From positions 9,689-73,688 of the forward strand of contig CAIYYI010000230.1 in assembly GCA_903930345.1 (NCBI GenBank): 64,000 nt of DNA. Reading direction: 5' to 3'. Source of the DNA: an uncultured Verrucomicrobiota bacterium. GTDB taxonomy: Bacteria; Verrucomicrobiota; Verrucomicrobiia; Limisphaerales; CAIYYI01. Both the position numbers and the translations under genes were made by a program. The notes under the pieces were generated by a model. It saw only the letters and a list, made by a program, of their open reading frames with translations. It was not told where the DNA came from and searched no databases. This document shows, piece by piece, positions 2,136 to 22,036 of the stretch. Position 1 is the stretch's first letter, and every line of letters starts with the position of its first letter.

Positions 2136-2771
2136 TTACTTGATGTGGCATTTCAGGCACAGCGCGCTGCCAGTGTTTGCCATGCGTAGAAAGGGAGGGA
2201 ATTCATTGTTGTGGACCTGGTGGCAGGAAGCACATTCTACTTTGCCCGCAAACAGCGGAACCTTGCCTAGAGCATCCACCTTGCTGGCCGAGGTTGGTGA
2301 GACCAAGGCTCCATCGTCGCCAGCCAGTTTGGCATCGTAGAGAAAGGAGATGGGGTGGTCATTGGATAAATCGGTTCCCACCACGTTGGTGCCGGTCATG
2401 GGCGGTTGGGTTCCACTTTTTCCGCCAAACGAATCCATGGCGACCGTGCCATCATGGCAGCTCAGGCAGAGTTTGGAGGAACTGCTCGGAGAGCCAACGA
2501 CTGCGTTTAGCGTCGGGCTGACCGTGGCATCATATACCTTGAATGCGACCGTCGATGTCACTTTGTGGTTCCACAAAGGAGCATCCTTGACGGTGGTATC
2601 AGAATTGTGCGGCGTGTGGCAGAAGATGCAGAGTTCATCGGTGCCCCAGCCTTTGACCGAGAGATCGTGCTTGGTGCCAGATATGCCTGCCGCCGCCTGC
2701 AGGGCGGTGGGGGTTGCTGCCAGCAGCGCCAAGGCTGCGGTTAACATCAATAATTGCTTTACGTTTTTCAT
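2136..2771 (-). CDS. Tetraheme c-type cytochrome, OmcE-like (cytochrome nanowire family)
   Basis: Signal peptide and four CxxCH motifs (CIFCH, CLSCH, CASCH, CLKCH). The motif string TKHDLS..CxFCHTPHN..PLWN..CxSCHDG..GTDLSNDHP..PLF..ECxSCHxVHxN..PFLR..GSxLCLxCHxK matches the G. sulfurreducens OmcE sequence as recalled. Confidence 0.85.
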   Translation of the reverse strand: MKNVKQLLMLTAALALLAATPTALQAAAGISGTKHDLSVKGWGTDELCIFCHTPHNSDTTVKDAPLWNHKVTSTVAFKVYDATVSPTLNAVVGSPSSSSKLCLSCHDGTVAMDSFGGKSGTQPPMTGTNVVGTDLSNDHPISFLYDAKLAGDDGALVSPTSASKVDALGKVPLFAGKVECASCHQVHNNEFPPFLRMANTGSALCLKCHIK

Positions 2772-2816
2772 ACTTGGATTGGGTTTTGGTTCGGTTGAAT
2801 CATGCTGATGCTGAGA

Positions 2817-3326
2817 TTACGGTGCTTGTTTGGGGCGGGTTCGCGGTGCGCGTTTGGCTGGCTTCGGTGCGGTTTTTTCCACGGTTTGTGCATGGCAACG
2901 GGCTTCGGTCCGCTTGTCCAGACCGGCAATGCCGTTGGTAATGACTTCCGCCAGAGTGGCGTTCGTCATTGCTTCACGAAGCCGTCCTTTGGTTTCTGTC
3001 CAGAGGTCATGGGTGGGACAGATATGTTGTGAGTTGCACTCCCTCAGGCCCAGCAGGCACCCGCCCAACCATGATTTTCCCTCCACCGCCTCCACGATCT
3101 CTATCAAGGCGATGTCTTCCGCTGGCCGCGCCAGACCAATGCCGCCGCTGTGCCCTCGTTTGGTGGTCACCAAGTTCTTTTTGGTCAACAGGTTGATGAT
3201 TTTGGCGAGGTATGGCTTCTGAATGCCCGTGAGGTCCGCCACCTCCCGGATCAATAGAACCCGGTCGGTGCTCAGACAACTGAGCGCGTGGATGGCATAG
3301 CCGGTGGTTTGTGACAAGCTAAGCAT
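2817..3326 (-). CDS. Rrf2-family transcriptional regulator with IscR-like Fe-S ligands
   Basis: Winged-HTH Rrf2 pattern (YLAKII..L...LV...RG.SGG..LARPAEDI.L.EIVEAVEG) and C-x6-C-x5-C-x2-H (CLLGLRECNSQHICPTH). Confidence 0.9.
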   Translation of the reverse strand: MLSLSQTTGYAIHALSCLSTDRVLLIREVADLTGIQKPYLAKIINLLTKKNLVTTKRGHSGGIGLARPAEDIALIEIVEAVEGKSWLGGCLLGLRECNSQHICPTHDLWTETKGRLREAMTNATLAEVITNGIAGLDKRTEARCHAQTVEKTAPKPAKRAPRTRPKQAP

Positions 3327-3357
3327 GTTGACTCGTGCCTTTAAATACCAAAGAGGA

Positions 3358-3395
3358 CTTGATTATCAAGATTAAAGATGATAAATCCGTCATCT
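3358..3395. promoter_or_regulatory. Candidate operator palindromes in the divergent rrf2/cytochrome promoter region
   Basis: CTTGAT-T-ATCAAG (3358-3370) and AGATGA-N8-TCATCT (3376-3395) in an AT-rich intergenic region, 30-70 bp upstream of the rrf2 start. Confidence 0.45.
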
Positions 3396-3527
3396 AACGA
3401 CACTGTGATCCAAACTTTGCTGAAGCTGGCGGTAAACGCGTGACATCCTATGCTTCCATTGCACCGGTTGAAACGGGCTTAACTGAGCCTCGTCCGGGGA
3501 AACCATTCGCTTAAACATAAGACACAC

Positions 3528-5999
3528 ATGTTGAGGCAGATTTCATTCCATCGTCTCGTTAGCCGACCGTCTTTCCCGTCCCTGTTCTTGTTTCTGACCC
3601 TGGTCATGGTCAGCCTGGTGGTTGCCAGTGACCCTCCTCACGACGAGGATTGTGTAGCGTGTCACCTGACCCACAACTCCCTCGGGGGAGGTTTGGGGAG
3701 CGTGGCGGGCAATGCCAATTTGTGCATCAGTTGCCACAATTCGAAGGGAACGGCTTCCGCCAAGTCCTTTGCGGACAGCCAACAGGCCTTGTCCTGGCCA
3801 GGTCTTCCGGTGGGAACCAACGCCATGGGGACATCTCACCGCTGGGATGTGGGCATGGTCGGTCGCATTCAATTTTTGGGAGGTGCGGCGATACGTTCCA
3901 CCGGAACCATCAAGCCAGCCGGTTCATACACTGGGGTTTATCCAAAAACCTACACCCTCACGATTGCCACCGCCGGGAATGTGAATGGGGCCCGTTTCAA
4001 TTGGTCGGCCACCACCCCCGGGGGGGGGAGTGGAGCTCTGGTTCTGGCCCGAGCCAACGTGACCTTGAACGAGGGGATCTTCGTTTCCTTTAGTAACAGC
4101 GTTGATGCTGTTAACGCGTTTCAGGTGGGCGACACATGGAACATCTACGTGCGATCTGATCTTCGCAATCCGACCAATTCGGCCATGTTGACCCGGTTGG
4201 ATAATGGCCGGGTCACTTGTTCCACCTGCCACGATGCGCACAGTCAGGCCGATGCGCCCTTCGACCCCAAAGCCCCGGCCTATGCCGGGGTGGGCACGGG
4301 GACCGGACGGCATTTCATGCGCATCAGCAACAACGTGGAACAAATGTGCGTGGATTGCCATGCCGTGCGGAATGTGACCAATTCCGTTGCCGGTTCGCAT
4401 CCGGTGGGCATGGTGTACGCCACCAACGCCTTCTACAAATTCACCACCAATCTGCCGTTGGAAAAAGTGACCGGCAAAATCAGGTGTCTCACCTGCCACA
4501 AGATCCATTTTGCCCCCTCCAACGATGGTGATCTGCTGGTGATGACCAATGCCACCGCCATGTGTGCCGAATGCCACACCCTGGCCGACCGAACCTCTCC
4601 GGCAGTCCACCTCAGTGCCACGAATGGAATGACCCTTTGGCCCGGTGGCCAATATGGTGGCACTTTCCCACAGCGCACCAACGCGAGCGATCGGGGCAGT
4701 TGCATGAATTGCCATGATCCCCACGGGTGGCCGGATACGGCGAATCCCACCACCCATTACCCCAAGCTGCTCGTGGATCAGGAGGAAAACCTCTGCTATG
4801 CCTGCCACGATGCCAATGGACCGGCCCTGAAGAATGTGAAGGATGATTTTGCCAAAGCCAGGCGGCATCCGATCGGGGATTCCGATTCCCTTCGCCGGGC
4901 CGGGCGCTCGGTTGAATGCAGTGATTGCCATAACACCCATCGGGCCATGGTTGGATCGCATGTTTATACCAATACCGCCACCGCCACCCGGAACCTCATT
5001 AGCAACCCGCTCAAAGGGGTGTCGGGTGTGTCGGTGAATTACACCGGTTTGGGGAATTTTGTGGCCCCCACAACGAATCTGTACACGGCTATCCCCAAAT
5101 CGGTGGGGGCCACCTACGAGTACCAGATTTGCTTCAAGTGCCATACCGCCTATTCATTCGGGAGCACACCCCCTCCGGGACTTTCCCCTGTTTACAGCAC
5201 CGGGACGGCCTCGTTCACCACCGGATCAACCAACGTCGTCGGTGCCTCCACAACTTGGAGGGCATCCATGGTGGGAATGTGGATCGTGCTGACGAGTGAT
5301 CCAACCAATGCCTATCGCATAACGGTGGTGACCAGCACCACCAGCATGACGGTGACCCCGGCCTTTGCGGGTGCCTCGGTTGCCGGCCAGGCTTACACCA
5401 TCGTGGGCGGAACCGACGTGGCCCAGGAGTTCAGCCCCATGAACCGGTCGGGGCACCCGATCATGACCGGCCTGGACAACTATCCCAATTCCACTGCTGT
5501 TTCAGGCAAAAAAGGGCTTTTGGCTGCGGCCTTGAAGGTGCCGTGGAACAGCAGTATTGGTCAGCAGACGATGATGTGTTCTGATTGCCACAACACCGAT
5601 GGGGCCTCCCCGGCAGCGCAGGGACCGCATGGGTCAGCCGCGCAGTATATGCTGCGGGGGGCCAACGCTGCCAATTGGCCCAATATCACCCTGGCGAATT
5701 TTAACACCAGTTGGTGCGCCAACTGCCACAACAACGCCGCTGGTTCTACCCACACCCGGGGCGACCACACCGGCCGGCAATGTTACCAATGTCACATCGT
5801 GATTCCGCACGGCGGCAAGCTTTCCCGGCTCATGGCGGATCATGACACGATGCCTGGTCGATATGCCTATAACGGCACCACGAACAATCAGTACATGCAA
5901 AGTTTCACCAAAGCGACGACTGGCGGGTATGGGGAAAGCAATTGCAAGGCGCAATGTGCCAGCGAACACAGAAATCGAACGCCATCCGAAAACTGGTGA
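3528..5999 (+). CDS. Large exported multiheme c-type cytochrome (13 CxxCH)
   Basis: Signal peptide; CVACH, CISCH, CSTCH, CVDCH, CLTCH, CAECH, CMNCH, CYACH, CSDCH, CFKCH, CSDCH, CANCH, CYQCH, plus a terminal CKAQCASEH. Confidence 0.93.
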   Translation: MLRQISFHRLVSRPSFPSLFLFLTLVMVSLVVASDPPHDEDCVACHLTHNSLGGGLGSVAGNANLCISCHNSKGTASAKSFADSQQALSWPGLPVGTNAMGTSHRWDVGMVGRIQFLGGAAIRSTGTIKPAGSYTGVYPKTYTLTIATAGNVNGARFNWSATTPGGGSGALVLARANVTLNEGIFVSFSNSVDAVNAFQVGDTWNIYVRSDLRNPTNSAMLTRLDNGRVTCSTCHDAHSQADAPFDPKAPAYAGVGTGTGRHFMRISNNVEQMCVDCHAVRNVTNSVAGSHPVGMVYATNAFYKFTTNLPLEKVTGKIRCLTCHKIHFAPSNDGDLLVMTNATAMCAECHTLADRTSPAVHLSATNGMTLWPGGQYGGTFPQRTNASDRGSCMNCHDPHGWPDTANPTTHYPKLLVDQEENLCYACHDANGPALKNVKDDFAKARRHPIGDSDSLRRAGRSVECSDCHNTHRAMVGSHVYTNTATATRNLISNPLKGVSGVSVNYTGLGNFVAPTTNLYTAIPKSVGATYEYQICFKCHTAYSFGSTPPPGLSPVYSTGTASFTTGSTNVVGASTTWRASMVGMWIVLTSDPTNAYRITVVTSTTSMTVTPAFAGASVAGQAYTIVGGTDVAQEFSPMNRSGHPIMTGLDNYPNSTAVSGKKGLLAAALKVPWNSSIGQQTMMCSDCHNTDGASPAAQGPHGSAAQYMLRGANAANWPNITLANFNTSWCANCHNNAAGSTHTRGDHTGRQCYQCHIVIPHGGKLSRLMADHDTMPGRYAYNGTTNNQYMQSFTKATTGGYGESNCKAQCASEHRNRTPSENW

Positions 6000-6041
6000 C
6001 AAAGTGCGACTAATTCCCATGAGCATCCCGAAAAGCATCCC

Positions 6042-7976
6042 ATGATCGGCACTGCAAAGCGATTCCTGCGTTCGCCCCGCGTCATTGTGGCCGAGTTGGC
6101 CGGTCTGGCGCTGTTGTGCGCGCTGGGTGCCAGTCTGCCGCAGTCCGGTACGGCTACCCCGGCCGAACTCGCCCGTCTGCATGAAAGTGGCCCGTTCGTG
6201 GTGGCGCTGGTTGAAACCTTCGCGCTGGACCACATTTTTCGCAGCCCCCTTTTCATGGCGCTGACGTTGCTGTCCGCCGTCTCACTTCTCGTCATCGTCA
6301 TCGGCCAGGTGAAACGGCTTCGATCACAGTGGTTTCAGCGGCTTGGCCCCGCCCAGTTTCAGTCGGCTCCGTTCCGGGTGCAGTTTGAACGGCCAGCCAG
6401 GTTGCCCTTGGGCCAGGCGACCACCAAGGTGTGGTCGAAAAACCGCCTCGGTTTGGCTGGCTCAGCCATCTTCCATACCGGGCTGCTGCTTGTCATGCTG
6501 GCCGGGGTTTTGCGCGCTCTGTTTGGGGCGGATGCGGTCGTTGATCTGTTTGAAGGGGAGACGCTGCCTCCGACGGCCCGGGCGTGGGCGGCCCAATGGC
6601 CAGGCCTTCTGGCCAGGCCCGTCCAATTTGAGGAATCGTTGACGCTCAACCGGGTCCACGTTTCCCGCTATCCCTCCGGGGATCTGAAGGAGTTGACGGT
6701 CAACCTTGAGGCGCGCCGTCCGGAAGGCGTTGAAAAGGTCGATCTGGCGGTGAATCATGATGCTCACCTTGCGGGCCAGCGTCTTTTTCTCGGCCGCGAG
6801 TTCGGCCCAACGGTTTTTGTTGAGTGGCAGAACCACGGCGGGTCCTCTGCCCGGCAGGCCGTGCTGCTCGCGCCAGGGAACGAGGGCGTCTTTGAGGGTT
6901 GCTCCATCGGCCCGGGCAATTTGCGGGCTTACTTGCGGACCGTGGGCCGGTCGGCCGGCGACCACCCCACCACGGTGGAGGTGCGCGTGATGAAGGACAA
7001 TGCCCTCCTGTTTTCCGGGGATACGCGGGTTCAGGAATCCGTCAGCCTGTTCGGCGGGGACCGGCTGGTGTTGCATGGGGCTGCCTTCTGGGCCCGCCTG
7101 CGCGGCAGTCGTGATGGCGCGCTTTGGCTGGCTTACACCGGTTTTGCCCTGGTTCTGGCGGGCATCACCCTCATTTTTTGTGTGGTCAGGGTGGATGGCT
7201 GCCTGGTTGTCACCCCGGCGGGAGACTGGGAATCGGTTTTTCTTGCCGTGCGACCGCAGCGTTTTTCTGCAGCTTACGGTGATTATTTTCGCAGTCTCGT
7301 GCGCCAACAGGGGGGGGATCCCGGAACGGAGCTGCCACCAGGTGCCGCTCCGGCGCGTTCCCCTGATGCGGCCAAGGTTCCCACACCGATGGATGGTCCG
7401 CCGCAGCGCTCCCCGGTGGAATTAAGCGGGGCAACGCCCCGCCTGGCTGCCTGGATTTTGCTCGGGGTTTGTCTGGCTGCCCTGCCGGGATGTCAGCGGT
7501 CTTCCATGAAGGAGGCCCGGCAGCTGGTGGAGCGCTATAATCAGGTGGTGTCTGAAGCCTATCGGCGCGGGGATGTCCGGCTGATTGATCCGGTCGTTGG
7601 CCCCAATGAGGGACGGAAGCTGACCGGGTTGATCGGGGTTCGCACCGATCTGGGTATCACCTTGGATTCCCGGCTGCTCTCCCTCCTGGTCACCCATGTG
7701 GATGTGGTGGCGGACGAGATGCGGGTGCACACGAAGGAGCGGTGGCATTACCGTGATCTCAGGATCGGCACGGGCCAGCAGGTGGGGGAGGAATCACTCG
7801 ATGCCTATGAGATGCTCTACATTTTCAAACGCATCGACAAGGCGTGGCTGGTGGACGAGATTAAGTTTGCCTCGCCGCCGCAGGTGGGCCGCAAGAAAAC
7901 CCCCTGGGTTGCGGATCGCCAGGACGCGCACGCTTTGGGTGGCCCGTCCCAGGGCGGGGAGGGGAGACAGCCATGA
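6042..7976 (+). CDS. resB: Cytochrome c biogenesis ResB/CcsB-like protein fused to a C-terminal lipoprotein-like domain
   Basis: N-terminal TM helices with GASLPQ, IFRSPLF and IFHTGLL (conserved His), a large soluble domain, then TM DGALWLAYTGF. A Pro-rich linker and a hydrophobic stretch ending in LAALPGC follow. The gene sits directly before ccsA. Confidence 0.75.
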   Translation: MIGTAKRFLRSPRVIVAELAGLALLCALGASLPQSGTATPAELARLHESGPFVVALVETFALDHIFRSPLFMALTLLSAVSLLVIVIGQVKRLRSQWFQRLGPAQFQSAPFRVQFERPARLPLGQATTKVWSKNRLGLAGSAIFHTGLLLVMLAGVLRALFGADAVVDLFEGETLPPTARAWAAQWPGLLARPVQFEESLTLNRVHVSRYPSGDLKELTVNLEARRPEGVEKVDLAVNHDAHLAGQRLFLGREFGPTVFVEWQNHGGSSARQAVLLAPGNEGVFEGCSIGPGNLRAYLRTVGRSAGDHPTTVEVRVMKDNALLFSGDTRVQESVSLFGGDRLVLHGAAFWARLRGSRDGALWLAYTGFALVLAGITLIFCVVRVDGCLVVTPAGDWESVFLAVRPQRFSAAYGDYFRSLVRQQGGDPGTELPPGAAPARSPDAAKVPTPMDGPPQRSPVELSGATPRLAAWILLGVCLAALPGCQRSSMKEARQLVERYNQVVSEAYRRGDVRLIDPVVGPNEGRKLTGLIGVRTDLGITLDSRLLSLLVTHVDVVADEMRVHTKERWHYRDLRIGTGQQVGEESLDAYEMLYIFKRIDKAWLVDEIKFASPPQVGRKKTPWVADRQDAHALGGPSQGGEGRQP

Positions 7977-8800
7977 CCCCATTTACCCGGGAGGTTATCC
8001 TCCACTGGAGCGCCGTGGCTTTGTACATCGCCGGCACCATTGGTTTTGCCTACGCTCTGATCTTTGCCCGGCCCGAAAAGGTGAGGGGGGCTCTGTGCGT
8101 GACGGCGGCCGGCCTGGTGCCGCACACGCTGGCGCTCGTCCTCCGCTATGTTCGGGTTGGCCATGGCCCTTACATGCTCAAGTACGAGGTGCTTTCTTCC
8201 AATGCCTGGATCGCCATCGCCATGCTGCTGCTGTTTGTCTGGCGGCGGCCCGCCTGGGCATCGGTGGCGCTCATCGCGTTGCCGGCCTCCATCCTGATGA
8301 TGGGGTTGGGATTGTTCACCAACCCTGAGGCCCGCAGTCTCCCCCCCTCGTTGCGCTCGCTCTGGCTGGTGTTCCATGTGCTCTTCAACAAGCTTGCAGT
8401 GGGCGCATTCGTGCTCGCGCTCGCCTCGGCGGTGGTGCTGCTCCGGAAGCTCCGGGGTGCCACCGGTCGGTGGTTGGATCGTTTGCCCGGGTCCGAGGTG
8501 GTCGAGGTCTATATGGTCCGTTTCATTGGTTTCGGCTTTGTTTTTTGGACCACTACCATCGGGGCCGGGGCCATCTGGGCCAACCAATCGTGGGGCCGTT
8601 ATTGGGGCTGGGATCCCATTGAAACCTGGTCCCTCGTCACCTGGCTGGCCTACGCCATTTTGCTGCACGCCCGCCTGTTTTTCCGGCTGGGTGGCCGTGC
8701 GACGGCCTGGGGCACCGTGGCCTGCTTTGTTCTGTCCATCCTGACGGTGCTGATTTTCCCCTTTGTATTTCCGTCCATGCATTCCGCCTATTTCCAATGA
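7973..8800 (+). CDS. ccsA: Cytochrome c biogenesis protein CcsA/ResC (system II heme lyase)
   Basis: WWD motif WANQSWGRYWGWDPIETW, conserved His in WLVFHV, LLHAR and SMHS, multiple TM helices, and an ATGA overlap with resB. Confidence 0.93.
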   Translation: MTPFTREVILHWSAVALYIAGTIGFAYALIFARPEKVRGALCVTAAGLVPHTLALVLRYVRVGHGPYMLKYEVLSSNAWIAIAMLLLFVWRRPAWASVALIALPASILMMGLGLFTNPEARSLPPSLRSLWLVFHVLFNKLAVGAFVLALASAVVLLRKLRGATGRWLDRLPGSEVVEVYMVRFIGFGFVFWTTTIGAGAIWANQSWGRYWGWDPIETWSLVTWLAYAILLHARLFFRLGGRATAWGTVACFVLSILTVLIFPFVFPSMHSAYFQ

Positions 8801-10242
8801 TGAAACCGCGCCCCGAAATATTGCTGGTGACCCCCCCGTACCATTCGGGCGTGGTGGAGTCGGCCGGCTCCTGGCTGCCGCTGGGGCTGCTTTACGTGGG
8901 CGGGGCTCTGCAAAAAGCGGGCTTTGGGGTGGCGCTCTACGACGCCATGACCCGGTTCGACACGCTGGATCAGGTCCGGGCCACCTTGCGCCGGGAACGG
9001 CCGGATGCGGTCTTCGTTTCCTGCATAACGGCCACGGTTCTCGATGGCATTGAGGTTTGCCGGGTGGCGAAGGAGGAGGCCCCCGGCACCCTTACGGTCC
9101 TGGGCAACACCCATCCGAGTTTCATGTACGAGGAGATTTTGCGGGAGTATCCCGAGGTGGATGTCATTGTGCGCGCTGAGGGCGAAGAGACGTCGGTGGA
9201 GCTTATGCAGGCCTGGCAGGCGGGGGCTGATCTTTCTCGGGTCAGTGGCATCGCCTTTCGCCGGGATGGCCGGGCTTTTGCCACGCCTCCCCGCTGTTTC
9301 ATTGCCAACCTCGACCCGCTGGAGCCAGCTTGGGATCTGGTGCCATGGAAGGAGTACAGTTACCGGCCCAAACCCGGATCGACTTTGGCCGTGGTCTCCT
9401 CCTCCCGGGGCTGTAAGCAACATTGCTCTTTTTGCTCCCAACGCCTGTTCTGGAAGGAGTCATGGCGCGCGGTTTCCGCCGCTCGTTTTGTGGATCAGCT
9501 CGAGATGCTGCGGTCGCGTTACGGCGTCGATGTGGCCATGATTGCCGATGAGATTCCGTCCGTCGATCCCGTGCGCTGGAGCCGGATCCTGGATTTGTTG
9601 ATTGAGCGCGATATGGGCACTTCCCTGATGCTCGAGACGCGGGTCGAGGACATCATCCGTGATGCCGCTTTGCTTCCCCGGTATCGCCAGGCGGGCATTG
9701 AGCACATTTACGTGGGCGTCGAATCGGTCAACCAGGCCACGCTCGATTTGTTCAAGAAGGACGCCAAGGTTGAACAGGGCAAGCGCGCCATTGAGCTGAT
9801 CAATGAGCACCAGATGATTTCCGAGACCTCCTTCGTCATGGGCATGCCCGATGAGACCATCGAAAACATGCAGCACACCATTGAGCTGGCCAAGTTTTTC
9901 GATCCCGACATGGCCTTTTTCCTCGCCATCACTCCCTGGCCTTACGCGGATCTGTACCAGGATGTGAAGGATCACATCGCCACGCGGGATTATCGCAAAT
10001 ACAATCTGGTTGAGCCGGTCATCAAACCGGTCTCCATGTCGCTTGATGATGTGCGGGAGCAGCTTTTCCGGGGGTTTCGCGAGTTCTACCACAACAAGAT
10101 GAAAGGCATGGCCGCCATGCCGCCCTGGAAACAGCAGTTCATGAAAACCCTGATGAAGCTGCTGATGGAACATTCCTATCTGAAGGATCAGATGGCGGGC
10201 CTGGGTCATCCACTGCCGGAGCACCCTGGCCCTGGAGCTTGA
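8797..10242 (+). CDS. Cobalamin-binding radical SAM enzyme (class B methyltransferase/BchE-like fold)
   Basis: N-terminal B12-binding domain (PLGLLYVGGAL..GNTHPS..DVIVRAEGEET), SRGCKQHCSFC (CxxxCxxC), GVES and GMPDET. ATGA overlap with ccsA. Confidence 0.9.
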   Translation: MMKPRPEILLVTPPYHSGVVESAGSWLPLGLLYVGGALQKAGFGVALYDAMTRFDTLDQVRATLRRERPDAVFVSCITATVLDGIEVCRVAKEEAPGTLTVLGNTHPSFMYEEILREYPEVDVIVRAEGEETSVELMQAWQAGADLSRVSGIAFRRDGRAFATPPRCFIANLDPLEPAWDLVPWKEYSYRPKPGSTLAVVSSSRGCKQHCSFCSQRLFWKESWRAVSAARFVDQLEMLRSRYGVDVAMIADEIPSVDPVRWSRILDLLIERDMGTSLMLETRVEDIIRDAALLPRYRQAGIEHIYVGVESVNQATLDLFKKDAKVEQGKRAIELINEHQMISETSFVMGMPDETIENMQHTIELAKFFDPDMAFFLAITPWPYADLYQDVKDHIATRDYRKYNLVEPVIKPVSMSLDDVREQLFRGFREFYHNKMKGMAAMPPWKQQFMKTLMKLLMEHSYLKDQMAGLGHPLPEHPGPGA

Positions 10243-10248
10243 GGCGCA

Positions 10249-12015
10249 ATGAACAATCGCCATCAATGTGTTATGCATGACCATACTAAAACGGCCAGGC
10301 CGTTCGGGATGACTCCGCCAGCCGGGGCACGGCTTCTCTTTGCAAACCGGGTTTCGGCTTTCAGCCGGCTGCTCCGCGCCGGGTGCTGCCTGGTGGTTTG
10401 GCTCTTCTCGGCAGCCTCAATGCGCGCTGAGACCCCCTTGGTGGCTTCCTTGGGCGCGTATCGCGGGAGCCTCCAGGCCCCTGCCTGCGTCGCTGCGGAT
10501 GCGGCTGGGTACCTTTATGTCACGGACCCTCAGGCCGGCCAGGTGGTGGTATTCGATGGTTTTGGGCGGGTGGCGCAGGTCGTTCCCGGCTTCTCCGGTC
10601 CGCTGGGAATCGCTTTGGATGCCAATGGGCAGATTTATTTGTCGGAAGCGGCAAGCGGCAGTGTGACCGTCTTTGATGCCCAGTGGCATCCCCTGTACAA
10701 GCTCGGTGGCGGCGACCATGAGTTCCTCTTGCCAAACTACCTGGCCTTGGATCCCGCCCCGGGCAGTGCGGCGGTTTATGTTTCGGACAGCAAGGCCAAC
10801 CTGATCAAGGTTTATCGTGCCGGAGCGTTTGATTTCAGTTTTGGCGGCAAGGGCACCAATGATGGGCAGTTCAATTTCCCCACCGGTTTGCACCTCGCCG
10901 CCAATGGTGAGGTTTTTGTGGTGGACCAGAACAATGAACGCGTTCAGGTCTTTGGCCGGAGCGGTGATTTTCGGCGCTCATTCTCCTTGGTGACCCCGCT
11001 TGGTGGAATGGGGTTGGGTTCGGCTGGGGGGCGTTCTCAGGGCATCACCGGTGACCCATTGGGGCGTCTTCTGGTGGCAGATTCCTTTCAAGGTTTTGTG
11101 CGGGTGTTTGATGCGCAGGGCAATTATCAGGGACGCTTTGGTGGACTGGGGGAATTGCCCGGCCAGTTTGGCACCCCGTTGGGGTTGGTCATGGATGGGT
11201 GTGGCCGGCTTTTTACCGCTTCCGCAAACAATGGGCGCGTGGAGGTTCTTGGTCTGGACGGCTTCGCGCAGTTCAGCGCTGTCCCTGCCCAGCAGGTGGT
11301 TTGTGCCGGCACCAACGTTGCGTTTTCGGTGACCGTCACCAACCCCGGTGTCTGCACTTTCCAATGGCGCAAGGGCGCCAGTCCATTGGGGGATGGGGGT
11401 GTTGTTTCCGGAGCCACTGGCCTGGTGCTCAATCTTGTCGGCGTTTCTCCGGCGGATAGTGGGCAGTACTCCGTGCAGGTAACCGGGCCGGGGGTGGATC
11501 TGACCAGCCCGGCGGCAAATCTCACCGTGCTTCTCCCGCCCACCATTCTCAGCTTTTCGTCCAGCCAGACGGTGATCTTTGGCACCAACGTCACTTTCGC
11601 TGTGGGTGTCCTGGGGGAGGCCCTGTCCTACCAGTGGTTCTTCAGGGGGTATCCGATGGATGGGGCCACGGGTTCATCCCTCACGCTGCTCAACGTCCAG
11701 CCCGACCATGCTGGGGCCTATTCTGTGGAGGTGAGGAATTCGGTGGGGGCGGCGGTGAGTCCGGTGGCGCAGCTTGCTGTCCTGGTTCCGCCCGGCCCGC
11801 CGAAAATCGAATCCAGCATCCTCCTCCCGGGTGTGGGTGTGCAGCTCACCATCAATGGTGATATGGGCTACTCCTTCTGGATTGATGGAGCGAACAATCT
11901 TGCGGATTGGGTGGCCTTGACGAACATCGTCAATGAAACCGGGTCCCTGGATGTCGTGCTGCCGTTGTCCACGAATTTTCCGAACCAGTTTTACCGTATG
12001 CGCTGGATGCCGTGA
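10249..12015 (+). CDS. Exported NHL-repeat protein with two Ig-like domains and a C-terminal FYR module
   Basis: NHL repeats (GQFNFPTGL..EVFVVDQNNERVQVF), two Ig domains (FQWRKG..DSGQYSV; YQWFFRG..HAGAYSV) and a C-terminus NQFYRMRWMP. The start codon is uncertain. Confidence 0.85.
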   Translation: MNNRHQCVMHDHTKTARPFGMTPPAGARLLFANRVSAFSRLLRAGCCLVVWLFSAASMRAETPLVASLGAYRGSLQAPACVAADAAGYLYVTDPQAGQVVVFDGFGRVAQVVPGFSGPLGIALDANGQIYLSEAASGSVTVFDAQWHPLYKLGGGDHEFLLPNYLALDPAPGSAAVYVSDSKANLIKVYRAGAFDFSFGGKGTNDGQFNFPTGLHLAANGEVFVVDQNNERVQVFGRSGDFRRSFSLVTPLGGMGLGSAGGRSQGITGDPLGRLLVADSFQGFVRVFDAQGNYQGRFGGLGELPGQFGTPLGLVMDGCGRLFTASANNGRVEVLGLDGFAQFSAVPAQQVVCAGTNVAFSVTVTNPGVCTFQWRKGASPLGDGGVVSGATGLVLNLVGVSPADSGQYSVQVTGPGVDLTSPAANLTVLLPPTILSFSSSQTVIFGTNVTFAVGVLGEALSYQWFFRGYPMDGATGSSLTLLNVQPDHAGAYSVEVRNSVGAAVSPVAQLAVLVPPGPPKIESSILLPGVGVQLTINGDMGYSFWIDGANNLADWVALTNIVNETGSLDVVLPLSTNFPNQFYRMRWMP

Positions 12016-12075
12016 GCAGTGATGATGCAATGTTTTAATATTGACACTCGGTTAACTAATAATAACGCTAAAGCT

Positions 12076-13395
12076 ATGAACCTTGGCAAATCCTCTGTCT
12101 TTGTCACCAAAGACCTTCTGACCAATAAGTTCCCCCTCGCTTCTATTACAATGGTTTTCGCTGCCCTGCTGGGGGTCAGTCTTCCCGCGCTGGGTCAGTC
12201 TGATCAGACCTATGGTTTTGTTGGTTTCGCTGGCTTCGCTGGCTCACCTGGCAGTCTTGATGGCGAGGGCAGTGCCGCACGATTCAACTTTCCCGCCGGG
12301 GTGGCCTTGGATATTTCCAGCAACTTGGTGGTGGCGGATTTTGGCAATCACACCGTTCGGATGGTCTCCTCCGCTGGTGCGGTGACGACTCTGGTGGGCA
12401 CCGCAGGGATTTCCGGCACCAACAATGGGACGGGCGGTGCCGCCCGGTTCAATCATCCCTTCGGCGTGGCTTTGGACCGCAGTGGGAATATTTTTGTGGC
12501 CGATTCGGACAATCATACAATTCGGAAAGTGACTCCCGCCGGGGTGGTCACAACGCTGGCGGGAAGTGCCGGTACTTCCGGCACCAACGATGGGGTCGGC
12601 CTTGCCGCCTTGTTCAGCCATCCTTTCGGTTTGGCGGTGGATGGGGCGAATAATATCTTTGTGGCCGATTCCGACAATCACACTATCCGGAAGATAACCC
12701 CGGCGGGCGTGGTCACGACTTTTGCGGGCAGCCCGGGGATGCCAGGAGCCATTGATGCTGCAGGAGGCGATGCGAGGTTCAATCACCCCTCTGGCGTGGC
12801 TGTGGACAGTCAGGGTAACGTGATGGTGGCGGATAAAGGCAATTTTACGATTCGGCGGGTGACCACGAATGGGGTGGTGACCACTCTGGCCGGATTGGCG
12901 GGTTATTATGGTCGGATGGATGGAACGCGCAGTGTGGCGCGTTTTTATGATCCGTCGGGGGTGTCTGTGGATGCCGCAGGCAACGTGTTTGTGTCGGAAT
13001 TCGGTAACACGATCCGGAAGGTGACCCCGGCCGGGACGGTGTCGAGTTTGACAGACGGCGCCGGCCCGCTTGATGCACCCCAGGCTGTGGCTGTGGATGC
13101 TGCCGGCGTTCTTTTTATCGCCGATTCCTTGAACAATCGCATTGTCAAAGGTCGGCTCGGTGGGTTCGGTGGGATCTCGCCATCGTTGAGGGTGGCTCTC
13201 TCCGGCGGTCGCGCCAACGTGTCTCTATCCTGGCCCCCAAGTCACCTCGGCTGGGAACTGCAAATGACGACCAACTTGTCCGGCGGGGGGCTCACCACCG
13301 CTTGGACTCGCGTGGTCGGCTCCACTGGCGGCACCAACTTTTCCCTGCCCAATAACCCAGCCAATCCCGGCTTTTATCGGCTAAAAAGTCCGTAG
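12076..13395 (+). CDS. Exported long-repeat NHL (teneurin-like) protein with a C-terminal FYR module
   Basis: About five ~55-aa repeats (G.G.AARFNHP.G(V/L)A.D..GNIFVADSDNHTIRKVTPAGVVTT.AG) and a C-terminus GWELQMTTNL..W..GFYRLKSP. ATG 12076 was chosen because it lies downstream of a TTGACA at 12041. Confidence 0.85.
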   Translation: MNLGKSSVFVTKDLLTNKFPLASITMVFAALLGVSLPALGQSDQTYGFVGFAGFAGSPGSLDGEGSAARFNFPAGVALDISSNLVVADFGNHTVRMVSSAGAVTTLVGTAGISGTNNGTGGAARFNHPFGVALDRSGNIFVADSDNHTIRKVTPAGVVTTLAGSAGTSGTNDGVGLAALFSHPFGLAVDGANNIFVADSDNHTIRKITPAGVVTTFAGSPGMPGAIDAAGGDARFNHPSGVAVDSQGNVMVADKGNFTIRRVTTNGVVTTLAGLAGYYGRMDGTRSVARFYDPSGVSVDAAGNVFVSEFGNTIRKVTPAGTVSSLTDGAGPLDAPQAVAVDAAGVLFIADSLNNRIVKGRLGGFGGISPSLRVALSGGRANVSLSWPPSHLGWELQMTTNLSGGGLTTAWTRVVGSTGGTNFSLPNNPANPGFYRLKSP

Positions 13396-13624
13396 TGCTG
13401 CCAGATGTTCTTACTTCGTTCTCTTTTTTGCTTCTGTTGAATCTGGCTGTTTCTTCCAGGTTTGGGAGGCGGTAAGAAATTAAGGTCGCAAGATGGCGCC
13501 GGGATTTTACCGTTGGGCGAGGCGCGACCAAGGAGCATATCCGCAGCGATCTGTGACTGAGGAGCAACGACGCCCAACGCCACAAGAACCAGTCAGGTTG
13601 TCGCCATAATTTCTTACCGCCTCC

Positions 13625-14851
13625 TTAACGGGCCGGACGGGCGGGTGGCGTTGCCGCATCGGTTTGGGCTGCGGCAAGTTCCTTGTTGATGGCGGCGGAG
13701 CGCTGTTTCAGATGTTCGCGGAGCAGTTTTTCACGCGCATCGAATTTGGCGCGTTCAAGGTCAGAGGCTTCGCTCAGGGCCGGGCGGAGCATTTGGGCGA
13801 GTTGATCCACCTGGCGGTTTAGCTTTTCCAGGTTGAAAACCTGGGTGGCCAGCCAGGTGCAACGGTTGGTATAGGCCTCCCGGCCTTGGGGGGTCTCATA
13901 GAGGGCTTTCGACACCAGCGCGCTGAAGCCAGGGTGAAGGATGGAAGGGCGGCATTGTTCAAACATGCGGTCCAGGTCGTTGGGCATGAAGACGAGGGTG
14001 TGCGTTTCGGGATCATGGTAGAGCCGGAAGTTGTGGCCGTACACCGAATAGCCATCGCAATGGCAGGTGATGATTTCCATGGCCATGAAGGAGAGGAAGC
14101 GGCGGATGTCGAGCGTGGTTTGGAGCCGTTCCCAGCGGCGGTCGAGGTCGCGCTCCTGGCAGGCCGCCACCAGGGCGGAGAGGTCGGACAGGGGCTGCGG
14201 CTGCCTCCCCTCATCCAACCGGAAACGCCTCTGAAGATCATTGCCGGAGCCGAGATCGTAGGAGCCTTGGTTGATGTCGTAGAGGTTGCCGTCGGTTTCC
14301 TTGAAGTAAAGGCGGAGAAAATCCTTGCTGAATCCCTCCTTCAGGACGTAGAGGCCGAGTTTGCGGCCGTTGATCTGGACCAGGGCGTGGCCCGTGCGCG
14401 GGGCGGGCACGCCGGCTTCGCGGAAGAGCTGGCCGGCGAGGGCTTCATTCATGTAGGAGGGGTCTTGAACGGAGTTGTTGAGCAGGATCTTCCGCAGACC
14501 GTGGAAATTCTGATCGGGAACGAAATACTGGAAGTTGAGGGTCAATCCCGGTTTGTCATCAAAGTTCCGAAAACTGCCGCTCGCCCCTTTCAGGTGAACG
14601 GCGACATTCTGATAAATCCGGCCGCCCTCTTTGACGGTCGCACGCACCTTGCGGCGGGGATCCTTGCGGAGGCTTGCCGTGTTGGCGGGATCGAGTTCAA
14701 TGGCGATCTCCACTGGTGCGCGGTGGGTGAACAGGTCCGCGCCTGGCTCGGTCCGTCCCGCCGGTTCAGCGGCGGAAACCGCCGGGCGGAGGGCCGGAGA
14801 TCCGATCCCCAGAAGGGCGATCAGGAGCAGGATGCTGGCGAGTGATGGCAT
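13625..14851 (-). CDS. CotH kinase family protein, exported
   Basis: LKGASGSFR..DKPGLTL..FHGLRKILLNNSVQDPSYMNE..GVPAPR..CHCDGY..HNFRLY..PNDLD. Signal peptide starting at MPSLASILL (14851). Confidence 0.88.
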   Translation of the reverse strand: MPSLASILLLIALLGIGSPALRPAVSAAEPAGRTEPGADLFTHRAPVEIAIELDPANTASLRKDPRRKVRATVKEGGRIYQNVAVHLKGASGSFRNFDDKPGLTLNFQYFVPDQNFHGLRKILLNNSVQDPSYMNEALAGQLFREAGVPAPRTGHALVQINGRKLGLYVLKEGFSKDFLRLYFKETDGNLYDINQGSYDLGSGNDLQRRFRLDEGRQPQPLSDLSALVAACQERDLDRRWERLQTTLDIRRFLSFMAMEIITCHCDGYSVYGHNFRLYHDPETHTLVFMPNDLDRMFEQCRPSILHPGFSALVSKALYETPQGREAYTNRCTWLATQVFNLEKLNRQVDQLAQMLRPALSEASDLERAKFDAREKLLREHLKQRSAAINKELAAAQTDAATPPARPAR

Positions 14852-15196
14852 GATGCTGGAAACAGGTTGAACCATTCCTGGTGCCAACCGCCAGCAAAAA
14901 AGCCCCTCTGGATTGATCCAGCGCCATGGTTTTCTCCCAGTGCCCATTGCGGAAACTTGCGAGATGGGTTGCTGCCAATTCGGGTGGTGGGCGCGGTGCG
15001 AGCGAGGCGGCATCCCCGCCGCAGGCTGTGACGAGCGAGCAGCAAGGCCGGCCACCCTAAGGGCCAAGCGCCCGCTCGCACTTTTCAGCCTTACCCCGGT
15101 TTTTATTGCGCCACCCAACCTTGGCTGGTACGTTCCAGCAGCCTTGGATCTAGTATTCCTACTATTTCCATCATAGCTGTGGTATAAAATATATTT

Positions 15197-18100
15197 ATGT
15201 ACAAACGCGACGCGGGCGGTTTTCTTCGGGTGGTTGTCGAGCTGTTTTATCCAAGCGCCGGGTCGCGCATAGATTCCAGCGCGGGGTGGGGATTATGGCT
15301 GGGGTTCCTGATCTTCACCGCGTTCCTCCCCCCGGTCCTTGCACAAACCGGGCCGATGAGTGTGCGTCCGGGATCGGTTCCCGGGCAGGCGGAAGTTTCC
15401 GTTGGGAGTCAAACGGACAAGTTTTATCAATTGGAAGTCTCCCGCGACCTGAAGGACTGGTGGGCTGCGCTCGGAACGAACGGGACCGGGAGCAACCTGA
15501 CTTACACGGTGGATACCACCGGTCAGGACCGGCTCTTCTTCCGGTTTGTGATTGAGCAGAACGGACTGCTGCGCGGGCTCACCAACCTGGTGTTGGCACC
15601 CGAGGCCGGTTTTAGTGAGGTGGGTGAGCGGGCGGCTCTGATACTGGCCTCCAATGGGGTTGCCAGCACGGATGATTTGTTCAACCGCTTCCGTTCTGTC
15701 TCCCGTTTGAACCAGGAGGTGGCCCGCCTCCAACAGTCCGGGGTCCGCATTGATGCGGGCAATGTCATCGGCCTGCTCAAAGAGGCGGAGTTGCGCACCA
15801 ATCTAAAGTCGCTGGAGGAAAAAGGTTTCCGCAAGTCTCTGACCGACGTGCTGGTATCAAGCCGTTTTAACATGACAGAGCTGCACCGGTTCATGCGCCG
15901 GGTGCCGGCGGATGCCGGGGCTTTGCTGGCGCAGGAGGCCTATCTGGAGTTCAAAAACACCTTGCAGGAGGTGGGGAGTTGCCCGTTGAGCCAGGAGGAA
16001 TTCCATCAGTTGCGGGCGCACGTCGCCTCGCTCAACCCGGTGCCCGATCTCCAAGTTACGCAGAGCCACCAGGACGCCCGGTATGGCACGCTGCCCGGGG
16101 CAGCCAAGCGCCTGGCAACCGCGCAAGCCAAGGATGGCACCCTGACCAACCTCGTCGGCGAGGCGGTTTCCTCCTTGGAGGAACAACTCTCCAAGCTACC
16201 TCCGCCCAGTTACGATTACATCCCGGCCTACGTGCAGCAGCACAACCAGGCCCGGTTCCTGCTCGAACCGTACCCCCTCGCCATCCTGGGCTACCGATTG
16301 GTTCGCAGTGGGGCCGCCTCTTTGCCGGTGCCGATTGACGCGCTGCCTCCCTTCACGGTCGAGTCTGAAAACCCCGGCTACCGAAAATTCCTCATCAATG
16401 AGTCGGGGTTGGCCTGGTTCAAAGCCTACGGCCACGCCCAGGGGGCGCACCTTCTCATCCGGAATTCCACCGGACAGACCATTCTGGATGAGCAAATCCC
16501 GGCCAACAGTTCCCGGGGCTTCATCCTTCCCATTTTCCAGGAGGATGTCGGTGCCGGATTTGAGGTGTTGAAGGTCGATGGCCTCACCCTTTCAGCCATG
16601 TCCTTGCAAAAACCCCTGGTCGCGGAGAACGTGGCGGGCGAATTCAGGCTGCAGGATCAGTCCCTGACACCGGTGGTGCCATCCCTGCCGGGGGGGGCGG
16701 CCTGGCTGCGGTTCTCCCTGCTGGACTCCCCCGGGGCAGGCGCGCCCCCGCTCGTCGCCTCACTTCAGGTCCGTAATTCATTCCTGCCGGACGGAACTTA
16801 TCAGACGGTGCTGATTAATCCCTCCCGCGTCCCCGCCACCAATTGCCTCACCCTAAACCACCCCTTGGAATTGCCGTTCCAAGGCCAGAATGGCCTTTGG
16901 AATTTGTTCATCCTGCCTCCCGGGATCGACGGTGCCCCGCTGATCCGGTTAAATCCCGTGACGGGCCAGGTCGATGCTCTCTCCCTCTTTGCCCTCAACG
17001 CGGACACCAGCTCCGGGGAGTCCGCCTTTGACTTTGTGCTGCAACACGCGCCGGTTCAAACCCGGGCCTTTCTCGTCGGCAAAATGAACCAGGTCGCCTA
17101 CAGCCGGGATGGGGAATCCGCCGGATCATTCGGGGAGGTGAAACTCTCCTTCCATGCCAACATTGCCCCCTACTTTGATCAGGCGGCGAGTTTCGGATCC
17201 GTCTTCGGGGAAAGCCGCGCTTTCCAAGCCTGGCGGCTTTGGCTGGATAACGGCCAGAATGCCGCTGCTTTGGCCCTGAACGAACAATTTGTCGCGGGCC
17301 TGGCCGAACTTCGGTTGAACGAGGCTTTCCGGTCCGAATACCTCAGCTCATTTTATGAGTTCTTCCCCTACCAGAATTCCCCTTACAGCTTCTACGATGA
17401 CAATGATCTGCTCACGGTTTACAGCGCCCACGTCAGGAATGAACTGGGCCGGAGCTGGTATCGGAACATCGGTGATGCGGCAGCCCTCTATCAGTCCTGG
17501 GCGGACCGTGTGGTTCAGATCAATGCCTTCAAATACCCGTTCGGACAACAGTACAAGATCGTGGACAATCTGGTCACCGGGTCCCCTCTCAACGGCACGC
17601 TCTCCTACCTGAGCCTGCACCCGGTGATCCCCGTGGACGTGCCGCTCTTTGCGGTGCCCAAGGACCGGATGGCCCGGGAACCTTTGCCCATCTCTTTTGA
17701 CTATGCCACCTGGGAAATGGACGAGCTGGACAAGAGTGATCTTTTCGGCTCTGCCCTCAAGGGCGTAGTCAATGTGGGCCTCGGCATTCTCGGCCAGAAC
17801 TGGGCCCGGGCGGTCTGTTCTGGCGTGGACATGATTGACGAACTGCACCGGACGGTGAAAGCGGCCAAGGATGATCCGATTGGCTCCGCCAATTTCCGGC
17901 TCAGCCGCGCCTCCAGCCGGCACGGGTTTTATGGTTTGGAGGATGATGAGCTGATGTCCTTTCATTTCTCTGGAAAACCGAAGAAGAACAACCTTAATGC
18001 CTTTGAAACCGGCCTCAACTACGCCAAGCTGGCTTGCGATACCATGACCGCCGTCTCCTCCGTCGGGGGAAACCTTAGTGATCTCAAAAAGAACCTCTCG

Positions 18101-21649: not shown

Positions 21650-22030
21650 TCACGCGCCGCGCGCGGAGCGCACGATTTTCTCCGCCCGCGCATGGGAGCC
21701 GAGGTTGAAAGCGTTAACATAACCCAGACTGCGTGCCTGGCCCTTGGCGATGCCGCTGCGCCCGCCGCTCAGGCAATGGAGTAGCAGCACCTGGTTCTTG
21801 TCCTTCACGCGGCGCGGCAGGCTTTCGCGCAGCTCCCCCAGCGGGAGGTTGATCGCCTCTGGCACGTGCCCGCTGCGGAATTCCTCCGGCGAGCGCACGT
21901 CGATTACCAGCGCGCCTTCTGCGAGGTGCTTGTGCGCCTCCTGCTCCGGGATGAATGCCATCCGTTTCATGAGGAAGAATGCGGCCATGACGATGCCGAC
22001 GATGATGGGTATGGTCCAATTGGTGAACAT
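21650..22030 (-). CDS. Membrane-anchored rhodanese-like sulfurtransferase
   Basis: N-terminal TM; IDVRSPEEFRSGHVPEAINLP; active-site HCLSGGRS. Confidence 0.9.
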   Translation of the reverse strand: MFTNWTIPIIVGIVMAAFFLMKRMAFIPEQEAHKHLAEGALVIDVRSPEEFRSGHVPEAINLPLGELRESLPRRVKDKNQVLLLHCLSGGRSGIAKGQARSLGYVNAFNLGSHARAEKIVRSARGA

Positions 22031-22036
22031 AAGAAA

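Follow-up and report, generated by a model that had tools for sequence, protein, structure and literature searches.

Cytochrome c maturation counts as a well-mapped field (systems I to III), and paralogues of system II are known for unusual haem-binding motifs. Wolinella succinogenes possesses dedicated system II synthases of this kind, NrfI for CXXCK and CcsA1 for the CX15CH of MccA; we know of no radical S-adenosylmethionine (SAM) partner of these systems, no specific search for one having been made. The present analysis concerns a 64,000-nucleotide stretch of DNA (hereafter the window) from an uncultured Verrucomicrobiota bacterium (GCA_903930345.1, contig CAIYYI010000230.1), in which the system II genes resB and ccsA are followed by a gene for a cobalamin-type radical SAM enzyme (8797..10242, + strand). 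This enzyme is probably a functional partner of the adjacent cytochrome maturation system. The best explanation of the locus as a whole, put forward tentatively from sequence and from analogy with described systems, would make it an accessory, acting on haem, of a dedicated system II.

The CXXCK and CX15CH motifs and their cognate CcsBA proteins have been discussed in print (PMC10663686). The closest published gene neighbourhood comes from the Geobacter metallireducens genome paper of 2009, which suggested that each Geobacter ResB/ResC pair may serve nearby cytochromes (PMC2700814). Its Table S5 lists a "cytochrome c biogenesis gene cluster" (GSU2893-GSU2887 / Gmet_0592-0598) with an acyl-protein synthetase (GSU2893 / Gmet_0595), a ResB-like protein (GSU2891), a ResC/HemX-like protein (GSU2890), a conserved hypothetical protein (GSU2889), a "radical SAM iron-sulfur oxidoreductase" (GSU2888 / Gmet_0597) and, closing the listed cluster, a 27- or 23-haem cytochrome (PMC2700814). 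The available part of that paper gives no role for the radical SAM protein and does not mention its kinship to the tetrapyrrole enzyme BchE. GSU2888 goes unmentioned in the main texts listed as naming any of GSU2887-GSU2891. A 2026 ISME J paper places "bchE" among viral auxiliary genes in enrichments of anaerobic methanotrophic (ANME) archaea, in the part available as a KEGG label only (PMC13452462). The literature searched yielded no functional account of a link between radical SAM enzymes and cytochrome c maturation, no description of a radical SAM/B12 enzyme as a regular partner of system II, and none of a relative of BchE that stands outside pigment synthesis and is linked with haem export. 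The gene neighbourhood is already in print, and a role for the radical SAM enzyme in such a system II has apparently not been described.

Linkage of the Radical SAM Gene to resB and ccsA

Six + strand genes lie head to tail at 3528-13395 and form an operon in which a cytochrome gene comes first (by the list of open reading frames, or ORFs). According to the first-pass annotation, resB, ccsA, and the radical SAM gene are joined by ATGA overlaps. The bases at 7973-7976 (resB/ccsA) and 8797-8800 (ccsA/radical SAM) do read ATGA, the upstream TGA stop overlapping the next ATG, and a second in-frame ATG of the radical SAM ORF is found at 8800. Such four-base overlaps are frequent in compact bacterial operons and are weak proof by themselves. 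The signal above chance is the conserved adjacency of ccsA and the radical SAM gene, rather than the overlaps as such.

Linkage was surveyed in 63 loci gathered with one genome per species. Two Thermoproteota matches (Thermodiscus and Acidilobaceae; 32% identity; L067 and L068) were placed by the tree outside the family and are excluded from the counts, which leaves 61 family loci. Profile hidden Markov models (HMMs), built on the CcsA and ResB proteins of these same loci, were used to scan all locus ORFs, with flanks of up to ~7 kb. ResB/CcsA of the subfamily type described below was found within 7 kb of the radical SAM gene in 37 of the 61 loci; for scale, the five genomes searched carry 2-7 CcsA-family genes each in ~2.6-4.5 Mb.

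The extent of linkage differs among the branches of the family. First, in clade A, to which the window's gene belongs, linkage is complete (12/12 loci, five named phyla), with ccsA ending 0-10 nt before the radical SAM gene and resB upstream. A multihaem cytochrome gene precedes resB in 11 of these 12 loci, the contig of L007 being too short. Second, resB and/or ccsA lie in the flank of 19 of the 26 loci of the archaeal clade. The order is resB-ccsA-radical SAM in ANME-2; in Methanoperedens the radical SAM gene comes first, with resB-ccsA ~0.5 kb downstream, and in one such locus scanned with Pfam (L029) a thioredoxin-like gene on the opposite strand occupies the gap before resB. In four of the seven archaeal loci that lack ccs genes the downstream flank is shorter than 1.5 kb, and three are long-flanked (L024, L032, and L033). 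Third, strong subfamily matches are present in four of the ten Nitrospirota/Lentisphaerota loci (L043, L044, L045, and L047); two others have only another CcsA type several kb off, and four have none or weak matches. Fourth, Geobacteraceae-type paralogues are linked in 2 of 13 loci (L056 and L059 only), and nine of the 13 carry two tandem radical SAM paralogues. Additional Geobacteraceae neighbourhoods, those of radical SAM proteins 52-54% identical to the window's (L094-L097), all contain ResB, the subfamily CcsA and the radical SAM gene within a few kb (4/4). The first-pass annotation had pointed to a similar linkage near Geobacter omc clusters, and these loci together with Table S5 show that it is real (PMC2700814). 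A prevalence of close homologues unlinked to multihaem cytochromes, which would have counted against its reading, was not seen; close and distant homologues alike are mostly linked to ccs genes and multihaem cytochromes.

Collectively, linkage is seen in Verrucomicrobiota, Kiritimatiellia, Lentisphaerota, Hydrogenedentes, Acidobacteriota, Nitrospirota, Geobacteraceae, ANME-2, and Methanoperedens. At least eight gene arrangements occur, including a convergent one (L047) and a fusion of the radical SAM enzyme to an SRPBCC domain beside ccsA (L044). The varied gene order among lineages suggests selection on proximity, rather than one inherited operon. An origin of the ccsA-radical SAM adjacency by chance or by a recent local rearrangement, for which the commonness of ATGA overlaps in compact operons could be cited, is scarcely credible given that the linkage recurs in so many arrangements across bacterial and archaeal lineages.

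The closest homologues of the enzyme come from metagenomes, with 75-88% identity in the 120 best clusters. Identity to the window's protein is 74-84% in Verrucomicrobiota, Kiritimatiellia, Lentisphaerota, Hydrogenedentes, and Geothrix, 49-53% in ANME-2 and Methanoperedens, 44-48% in Nitrospirota/Thermodesulfovibrionia and one Lentisphaerota genome, and 38-43% in Geobacteraceae, Syntrophobacteraceae, and one Acidobacteriota genome. Neither 250 other genomes sampled from the window's phylum nor 40 from its order yielded a homologue at E <= 1e-80. Among 87 Geobacteraceae genomes, by contrast, 46 have one at E <= 1e-60, many with a copy 50-55% identical. The gene is patchy in distribution. Sequences from different phyla are highly identical in genomic surroundings that are otherwise unrelated, an indication that the module as a whole spread horizontally.

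The Radical SAM-Linked CcsA and ResB

The window's genome contains three CcsA-type loci, and the ResB/CcsA pair adjacent to the radical SAM gene is an extra, distinct paralogue, not the genome's only system II. The ccsA gene (7973..8800, + strand) encodes a haem exporter/lyase subunit of the ResC type (275 aa; Pfam Cytochrom_C_asm, 112.9 bits). With 144.2 bits against a cut-off of 187.6 for TIGR03144, the protein does not score as a housekeeping CcsB equivalog. In a tree of 37 CcsA-type proteins, all 17 radical SAM-adjacent sequences stand outside a 15-row clade (support 97) of paralogues from the same genomes, and 15 rows, archaeal and bacterial, form one clade (support 98). The first-pass annotation had postulated a dedicated CcsBA, and these loci and the separate subfamily in the tree support it in so far as the pair is an extra, distinct paralogue. 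Subfamily CcsA without an adjacent radical SAM gene also occurs (L075 and L085), with ResB beside multihaem cytochromes and with the radical SAM gene elsewhere in the genome.

The window's CcsA retains the WWD domain; its H135, H232, and H270 do not vary across the aligned subfamily, and H64 hardly varies. The WWD motif itself (8603..8629, + strand) reads W-G-W-D-P-I216-E-T-W, with Ile in place of the Lys of other CcsA proteins. Among 35 distinct subfamily sequences this residue is Ile in 23, Thr in six, Val in five, and Leu in one, whereas it is Lys in 11 of the 12 other CcsA paralogues with a recognisable W-D-P-K-E-T-W-type motif and in both solved CcsA/CcsBA sequences. The two groups were sorted by an HMM made from subfamily seeds, which is a caveat to these counts; the tree agrees with the sorting. 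In H. hepaticus this Lys is K842, which is part of a predicted "C1" pocket for the CXXCH cysteine (PMC11322641), and the neighbouring E843 crosslinks the haem vinyl when mutated to Cys (PMC11322641, PMC10663686). By comparison of sequences, the subfamily is altered in the predicted pocket for the cysteine of the substrate motif. The altered residue adds nothing to the case for a haem substrate and fits altered peptide recognition.

The resB gene (6042..7976, + strand) encodes a ResB (CcsB)-like protein of 644 aa with a C-terminal extension (Pfam ResB, 75.3 bits). Only residues 16-250 are covered by the PF05140 match, on model positions 5-262 of 486. Nearer the C-terminus, the region encoded at 7536-7862 is similar to a 173-aa protein encoded on its own in the Thermodesulfovibrionia locus L045 (E 2.5e-6), a likeness which suggests that this region of the window's ResB is a fused accessory domain. 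The gene for the 173-aa protein (L045:5411-5932) is located between ccsA and the radical SAM gene. Prediction of a complex between the radical SAM enzyme and CcsA, both entered as alignments, gave a score of 0.00 and was uninformative either way.

The Linked Cytochromes

The first gene of the operon (3528..5999, + strand) encodes a secreted multihaem cytochrome of 823 aa. It is the 13-haem protein of the first-pass annotation and has exactly 13 canonical CXXCH motifs; its orthologues in clade A are 45-61% identical. Neither CX3CH, CX4CH, CXXCK, CXCH, nor CX5-20CH was found in it, and only the C-terminal tail (5943..5999, + strand) stands out. This tail ends N-C806-KAQ-C810-ASE-H814-RNRTPS-E-N-W823-stop and contains a non-canonical Cys-X3-Cys-X3-His. 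The two Cys and the His recur in 11 of the 12 clade-A cytochromes, the window's included, while L009 has one Cys; the general form is C-X2-6-C-X1-5-H, 6-10 residues, and E-x-W, with variable spacing.

Comparable motifs are found in more distant loci. A 15-CXXCH cytochrome in L045 ends C-X7-C-GD-H...ESW, the cytochrome upstream of resB in L047 ends C-X5-C-Q-H, and a 13-CXXCH cytochrome upstream of ResB-CcsA in L092 ends C-X13-C-A-H. In Methanoperedens, a cytochrome of ~300 aa encoded directly upstream of the radical SAM gene has six CXXCH and a conserved CX11CH (10 loci), and the large cytochrome encoded 3' of ccsA carries a CX11CH in five loci and a CX6CH in two. The linked cytochromes usually carry one non-canonical Cys...Cys...His motif, and the conserved C806-X3-C810-X3-H814 tail of the window's protein is a candidate haem-attachment site.

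These motifs invite the alternative that the enzyme modifies the apocytochrome and not haem, acting in the cytoplasm on the Cys...Cys...His stretch or on another residue before or during Sec export, after which the dedicated ResB/CcsA would deal with that site. Most linked cytochromes have one odd motif, and peptide-modifying class B radical SAM enzymes are among the weaker matches of the window's enzyme: ApyD, the TIGR03975 methylases of RiPPs (peptides made on the ribosome and modified after translation), and the methyl-coenzyme M reductase glutamine methylase 9ccb. We nevertheless regard such a target as rather unlikely. The motif varies by lineage in sequence and spacing, while the enzyme is conserved (74-84% in clade A and ~50% to the archaeal copies); its best model and its sister clade are those of a tetrapyrrole enzyme; no such motif was seen in the 27-haem neighbour in L094; and a cytoplasmic enzyme working on a large Sec substrate would be unusual.

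A separate observation concerns four 11-CXXCH cytochromes encoded upstream of the module (L006:276-1934, L014:268-2061, L017:596-2401, and L047:4165-5907), which share a near-C-terminal CX3CH within GSC-x-L-x-CHGK/T-D/T-H. They correspond to tblastn matches of a small 4-CXXCH cytochrome of the window (2136..2771, - strand; Pfam Paired_CXXCH_1), which belongs to the context of the operon only and is without the CX3CH motif.

Relationship of the Radical SAM Enzyme to BchE

The enzyme is a protein of 481 aa with a B12-binding domain (PF02310, 88 bits, residues 19-136) and a Radical_SAM domain (PF04055, 67.1 bits). Its CX3CX2C cluster motif (C206-X3-C210-X2-C213; 9412..9435, + strand) is invariant in alignment A1 (37 sequences), and E130, R204, D251, R288, D289, and others are likewise invariant across both the family and the BchE-like rows. 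The AlphaFold2 model has a predicted local distance difference test score (pLDDT) of 91.1 and a predicted template modelling score (pTM) of 0.90, and is confident in the B12-binding domain. In a Foldseek comparison with solved folds, the top matches were AprD4, TsrM, MgmA, CysS, TokK, and OxsB (E 2.5e-24 to 4.4e-19; TM-score 0.64-0.72 on the query). The overall fold is that of the cobalamin-dependent enzymes TsrM (6wte), MgmA (9ccb), CysS (9n1b), TokK (7kdx), and OxsB (5ul4) and also of AprD4 (6fd2), a radical SAM diol dehydratase, but sequence identity to these solved enzymes of the class B type is 15-20% and the substrates differ. No structure from the BchE clade was among the sequence or Foldseek matches listed. 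In domains, cluster motif, and modelled fold, the window's protein is a class B (cobalamin-type) radical SAM enzyme, as the first-pass annotation had called it, and its nearest characterised relative is the tetrapyrrole enzyme BchE.

The BchE model TIGR02026 is the best NCBIfam match (413.6 bits; residues 8-451 on model positions 2-446 of 497), followed by HpnR (158.4 bits). The score falls below the curated cut-off of 481.35 for the BchE equivalog. Nine representatives of the family (P0121-P0129) score 364-439 bits on TIGR02026, every one below the cut-off, in a curated-model scan that took in 77 of the 150 representatives listed. These nine come first in an exhaustive search of 1.84 billion representatives (41-51% identity, 400-558 bits); directly after them stand P0131 and P0132, which are true BchE (761 and 770 bits) and 39% identical to the query, and then a broad plateau of generic class B enzymes. 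A quick IQ-TREE search on 69 rows, with support from the Shimodaira-Hasegawa-like approximate likelihood-ratio test (SH-aLRT) only, gave a clade of support 100 in which BchE and BchE-like sequences (11 rows, 91) are sister to the window's family (46 rows, 88). On this evidence from sequence, the enzyme is a member of an uncharacterised sister family of BchE and does not fall inside the BchE clade. The BchE-like representatives bear generic cluster names or the JGI name "BchE" only, which made an assignment to BchQ or BchR impossible. No protein of the window's genome exceeds the BchE cut-off, and there are no bch-type genes among the window's annotated ORFs; genome-wide, TIGR02026 was the only bch family searched.

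One further alternative is that the protein is a haem escort in the manner of HemW, which would bind haem and pass it unchanged to the dedicated CcsBA. The radical SAM-family haem chaperone HemW (TIGR00539) is a weak NCBIfam match of the enzyme, and translational coupling with ccsA suggests matched amounts of the two proteins. However, the full B12-binding domain is retained, and the invariance of the cluster cysteines and of many residues shared with BchE would fit retained catalysis. An escort role is very unlikely.

Other Recurrent Partners

Several other genes recur beside the module. One encodes a membrane protein of 113-130 aa in which HD, RT, and KH motifs are invariant and for which Pfam gives no more than a weak CopD match; this protein is present in 11 of the 63 loci gathered first and also in L094, L096, and L097. 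It occurs next to the radical SAM/ccs genes in Methanoperedens, Nitrospirota, Lentisphaerota, Acidobacteriota, and Geobacteraceae (L029:11331-11681, L045:6009-6350, L047:6616-6999, L051:2095-2487, L059:9803-10183(-), and L094:10419-10772(-), among others). In the Geobacter table it is the entry for the conserved hypothetical protein GSU2889. A LuxE-type acyl-protein synthetase, a carboxylate-activating enzyme, is fused to the radical SAM protein in P0127 and encoded by a neighbouring gene in L094 and L095. Neither LuxE (PF04443) nor the small membrane protein was found in the window or in its genome (~90% complete), which leaves the cytochrome, ResB, CcsA, the radical SAM enzyme, and the NHL proteins as the minimal module.

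In Nitrospiraceae the radical SAM enzyme is fused C-terminally to an SRPBCC (Polyketide_cyc2) ligand-binding domain (P0124, L043:6995-8941, and L044:6995-8941), and genes for GT2 glycosyltransferases lie close by in L029, L056, and L062. NikR and CbiMNQ cobalt-transport genes are located 3' of the fusion gene in L044. A second, distant class B radical SAM protein (445 aa, ~39 bits to the window's) is encoded between ccsA and the LuxE gene at L095:4829-6166 and L096:3930-5267, so that these modules have two different B12-type radical SAM enzymes each. A fusion in P0125 was considered as a "Rosetta stone" and rejected, since its 600-aa C-terminal part matches no ResB, CcsA, small membrane protein, or locus ORF; the fusion resembles a run-on into a secreted protein.

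The GT2 neighbours and the fusions to SRPBCC and LuxE bear on another possibility, namely that the enzyme's substrate is a different molecule that the cell surface requires along with these cytochromes, for instance a lipid, another tetrapyrrole, or a compound resembling a quinone or a polyketide, and that the enzyme's link with the ccs genes reflects shared regulation only. The second-best models of the enzyme are the hopanoid enzymes HpnR and HpnJ, and the family loci without nearby subfamily ccs genes also speak for this possibility. Yet the hopanoid models score far under the BchE model, ccsA is the tightest and most conserved neighbour (0-10 nt in 12/12 clade-A loci), and a specific CcsA subfamily travels together with the radical SAM family across two domains of life. 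A substrate of this sort seems rather improbable.

Proposed Role and Significance

The explanation that we favour, in which the enzyme is a haem-directed accessory of a dedicated system II, may be outlined as follows. The operon would produce a secreted 13-CXXCH cytochrome together with its own ResB/CcsA, the radical SAM enzyme, and two NHL propeller proteins. On the neighbouring cytochrome, the dedicated ResB/CcsA would be responsible for a special attachment site, in the manner of CcsA1 and NrfI in Wolinella. The radical SAM enzyme would work in the cytoplasm, in the absence of oxygen, on haem that the dedicated machine then exports and attaches, and the chemistry could be a BchE-like side-chain oxidation or a C-methylation of the class B type. 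A cytoplasmic location is expected because the model has no signal peptide or membrane segment, and an enzyme located there must act before export.

Haem or another tetrapyrrole is a tentative choice of substrate, somewhat short of an even chance. Three considerations favour haem. First, the only characterised near relative acts on a porphyrin. Second, the enzyme (74-84% identity) is far better conserved than the cytochrome (45-61%) or the variable tail. Third, a carboxylate-activating partner of the LuxE type, present in some lineages, would suit a propionate side chain. A more specific version, in which a side chain of haem b is altered and the resulting new haem type is exported and fixed at the Cys...Cys...His site, is unlikely as it stands; the change could be propionate oxidation or ring closure, helped in some lineages by the LuxE-type activator, or a B12-dependent C-methylation. 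The first-pass annotation had looked to a +14 Da (methylation) shift. BchE is an oxidative cyclase and not a methylase (PMC13598231), and such a shift is for this reason only one possible outcome. Tuning of redox potential by the modification, which it had also suggested, is pure conjecture.

A number of observations weigh against the favoured explanation. Subfamily ccs genes are missing from the flanks of 24 of the 61 family loci, some of which are on short contigs; L024, L032, and L033 lack them despite ~7 kb of flank on the relevant side, as do 11 of the 13 Geobacteraceae-type paralogue loci. The tree that joins the family to BchE was inferred by a quick search, with SH-aLRT as its only measure of support, and contains long branches; kinship with BchE, the sole characterised clade member checked, does not by itself settle the substrate. 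A lipid or some different hydrophobic substrate would also be compatible with the fusions to SRPBCC and LuxE and with the GT2 genes nearby. In L094, no extra Cys...CH motif is obvious in the module's 27-haem neighbour, and the His of the window's tail is separated from the second Cys, which is not so in the haem c motifs known to us. Furthermore, the altered WWD residue lies in the predicted pocket for the apocytochrome cysteine and makes the dedicated CcsA explicable without a modified haem: by analogy with Wolinella, the cytochrome tail and the altered pocket could together account for the dedicated CcsBA as the machinery of a special attachment site.

The organisms in which the module occurs (Geobacteraceae, Geothrix, Methanoperedens, ANME-2, Thermodesulfovibrionia, and lake Verrucomicrobiota) are ones under study for extracellular electron transfer, a process in which the properties of the individual haems count. 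Should the enzyme alter haem or the special attachment site, a step would be added to the biogenesis of such cytochromes, and this could explain failed expression of such cytochromes in other hosts. If a new haem type is indeed made, one chemically distinct haem c would exist in Geobacter, Methanoperedens, ANME-2, and several uncultured phyla. The presence of the module, with a radical SAM enzyme 52-54% identical, in complete Geobacteraceae genomes makes the question directly testable.

Other Features of the Window

The operon is preceded by a divergent gene for an Rrf2-family regulator (2817..3326, - strand; Pfam Rrf2, 97.4 bits). Downstream of the radical SAM gene, after a gap of 6 nt, lies a gene for a 588-aa protein with NHL repeats and immunoglobulin (Ig) domains (10249..12015, + strand; Pfam NHL, Ig_3, and I-set), homologues of which are found 3' of the radical SAM gene in L006, L008, L009, L013, L014, L016, and L017. 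The last gene of the operon, 3 nt further on, encodes a 458-aa NHL-repeat beta-propeller protein (12019..13395, + strand; Pfam NHL, 116.4 bits). A scan of 2700-15300 for promoters and terminators gave counts of 4 vs 3.8 and 13 vs 15.7 in shuffles, and no excess.

The next gene after the operon, on the opposite strand, encodes a CotH kinase-family protein (13625-15118, - strand; 148 bits). It separates the operon from a 2098-aa ORF (15197-21493, + strand) with an N-terminal hydrophobic stretch, no CXXCH, and zero Pfam or NCBIfam matches, and is unusual company for a cytochrome cluster. A rhodanese gene and a gene for a pyridine-nucleotide-disulphide oxidoreductase/rhodanese fusion follow that ORF (21650-23854, - strand), and a rhodanese gene is also present 3' of the radical SAM gene in the Geobacter locus L056. 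The rest of the window consists of ordinary carbohydrate, tRNA, and signalling genes, with no other CXXCH-rich ORF. Six DNA sequencing runs contain part of the stretch, four of them lake-water metagenomes from one study, and no RNA run was among those listed for it.

Comparison with Known Systems

Compared to BchE, the window's enzyme has the same architecture of an N-terminal B12-binding domain and a radical SAM domain with CX3CX2C, but ~50 C-terminal model positions are missing. It adjoins genes for haem export and attachment, and signs of phototrophy are absent from the window. The substrate of BchE has Mg and a methyl-esterified propionate. Neither a methyltransferase gene nor a LuxE gene was found in the window's genome.

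Compared to the published Geobacter cluster, the module of the window is minimal, as LuxE and the small membrane protein were not found in its ~90% complete genome. The order in L094 and L095 (LuxE, ResB, CcsA, small membrane protein, radical SAM enzyme, and 27-haem cytochrome) is that of the Geobacter table, and the radical SAM enzyme in this order is 54% identical to the window's.

The likeness to NrfI and CcsA1 of Wolinella is threefold. First, an extra paralogue of the CcsBA type stands beside its presumed cytochrome. Second, the cytochromes of the radical SAM-linked loci often have one long-spaced or otherwise non-canonical Cys motif. Third, the linked CcsA is altered in the predicted pocket for the substrate cysteine. 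The window's system differs from those of Wolinella in that the tail's His and second Cys are not neighbours and in that its CcsA subfamily spans both bacteria and archaea.

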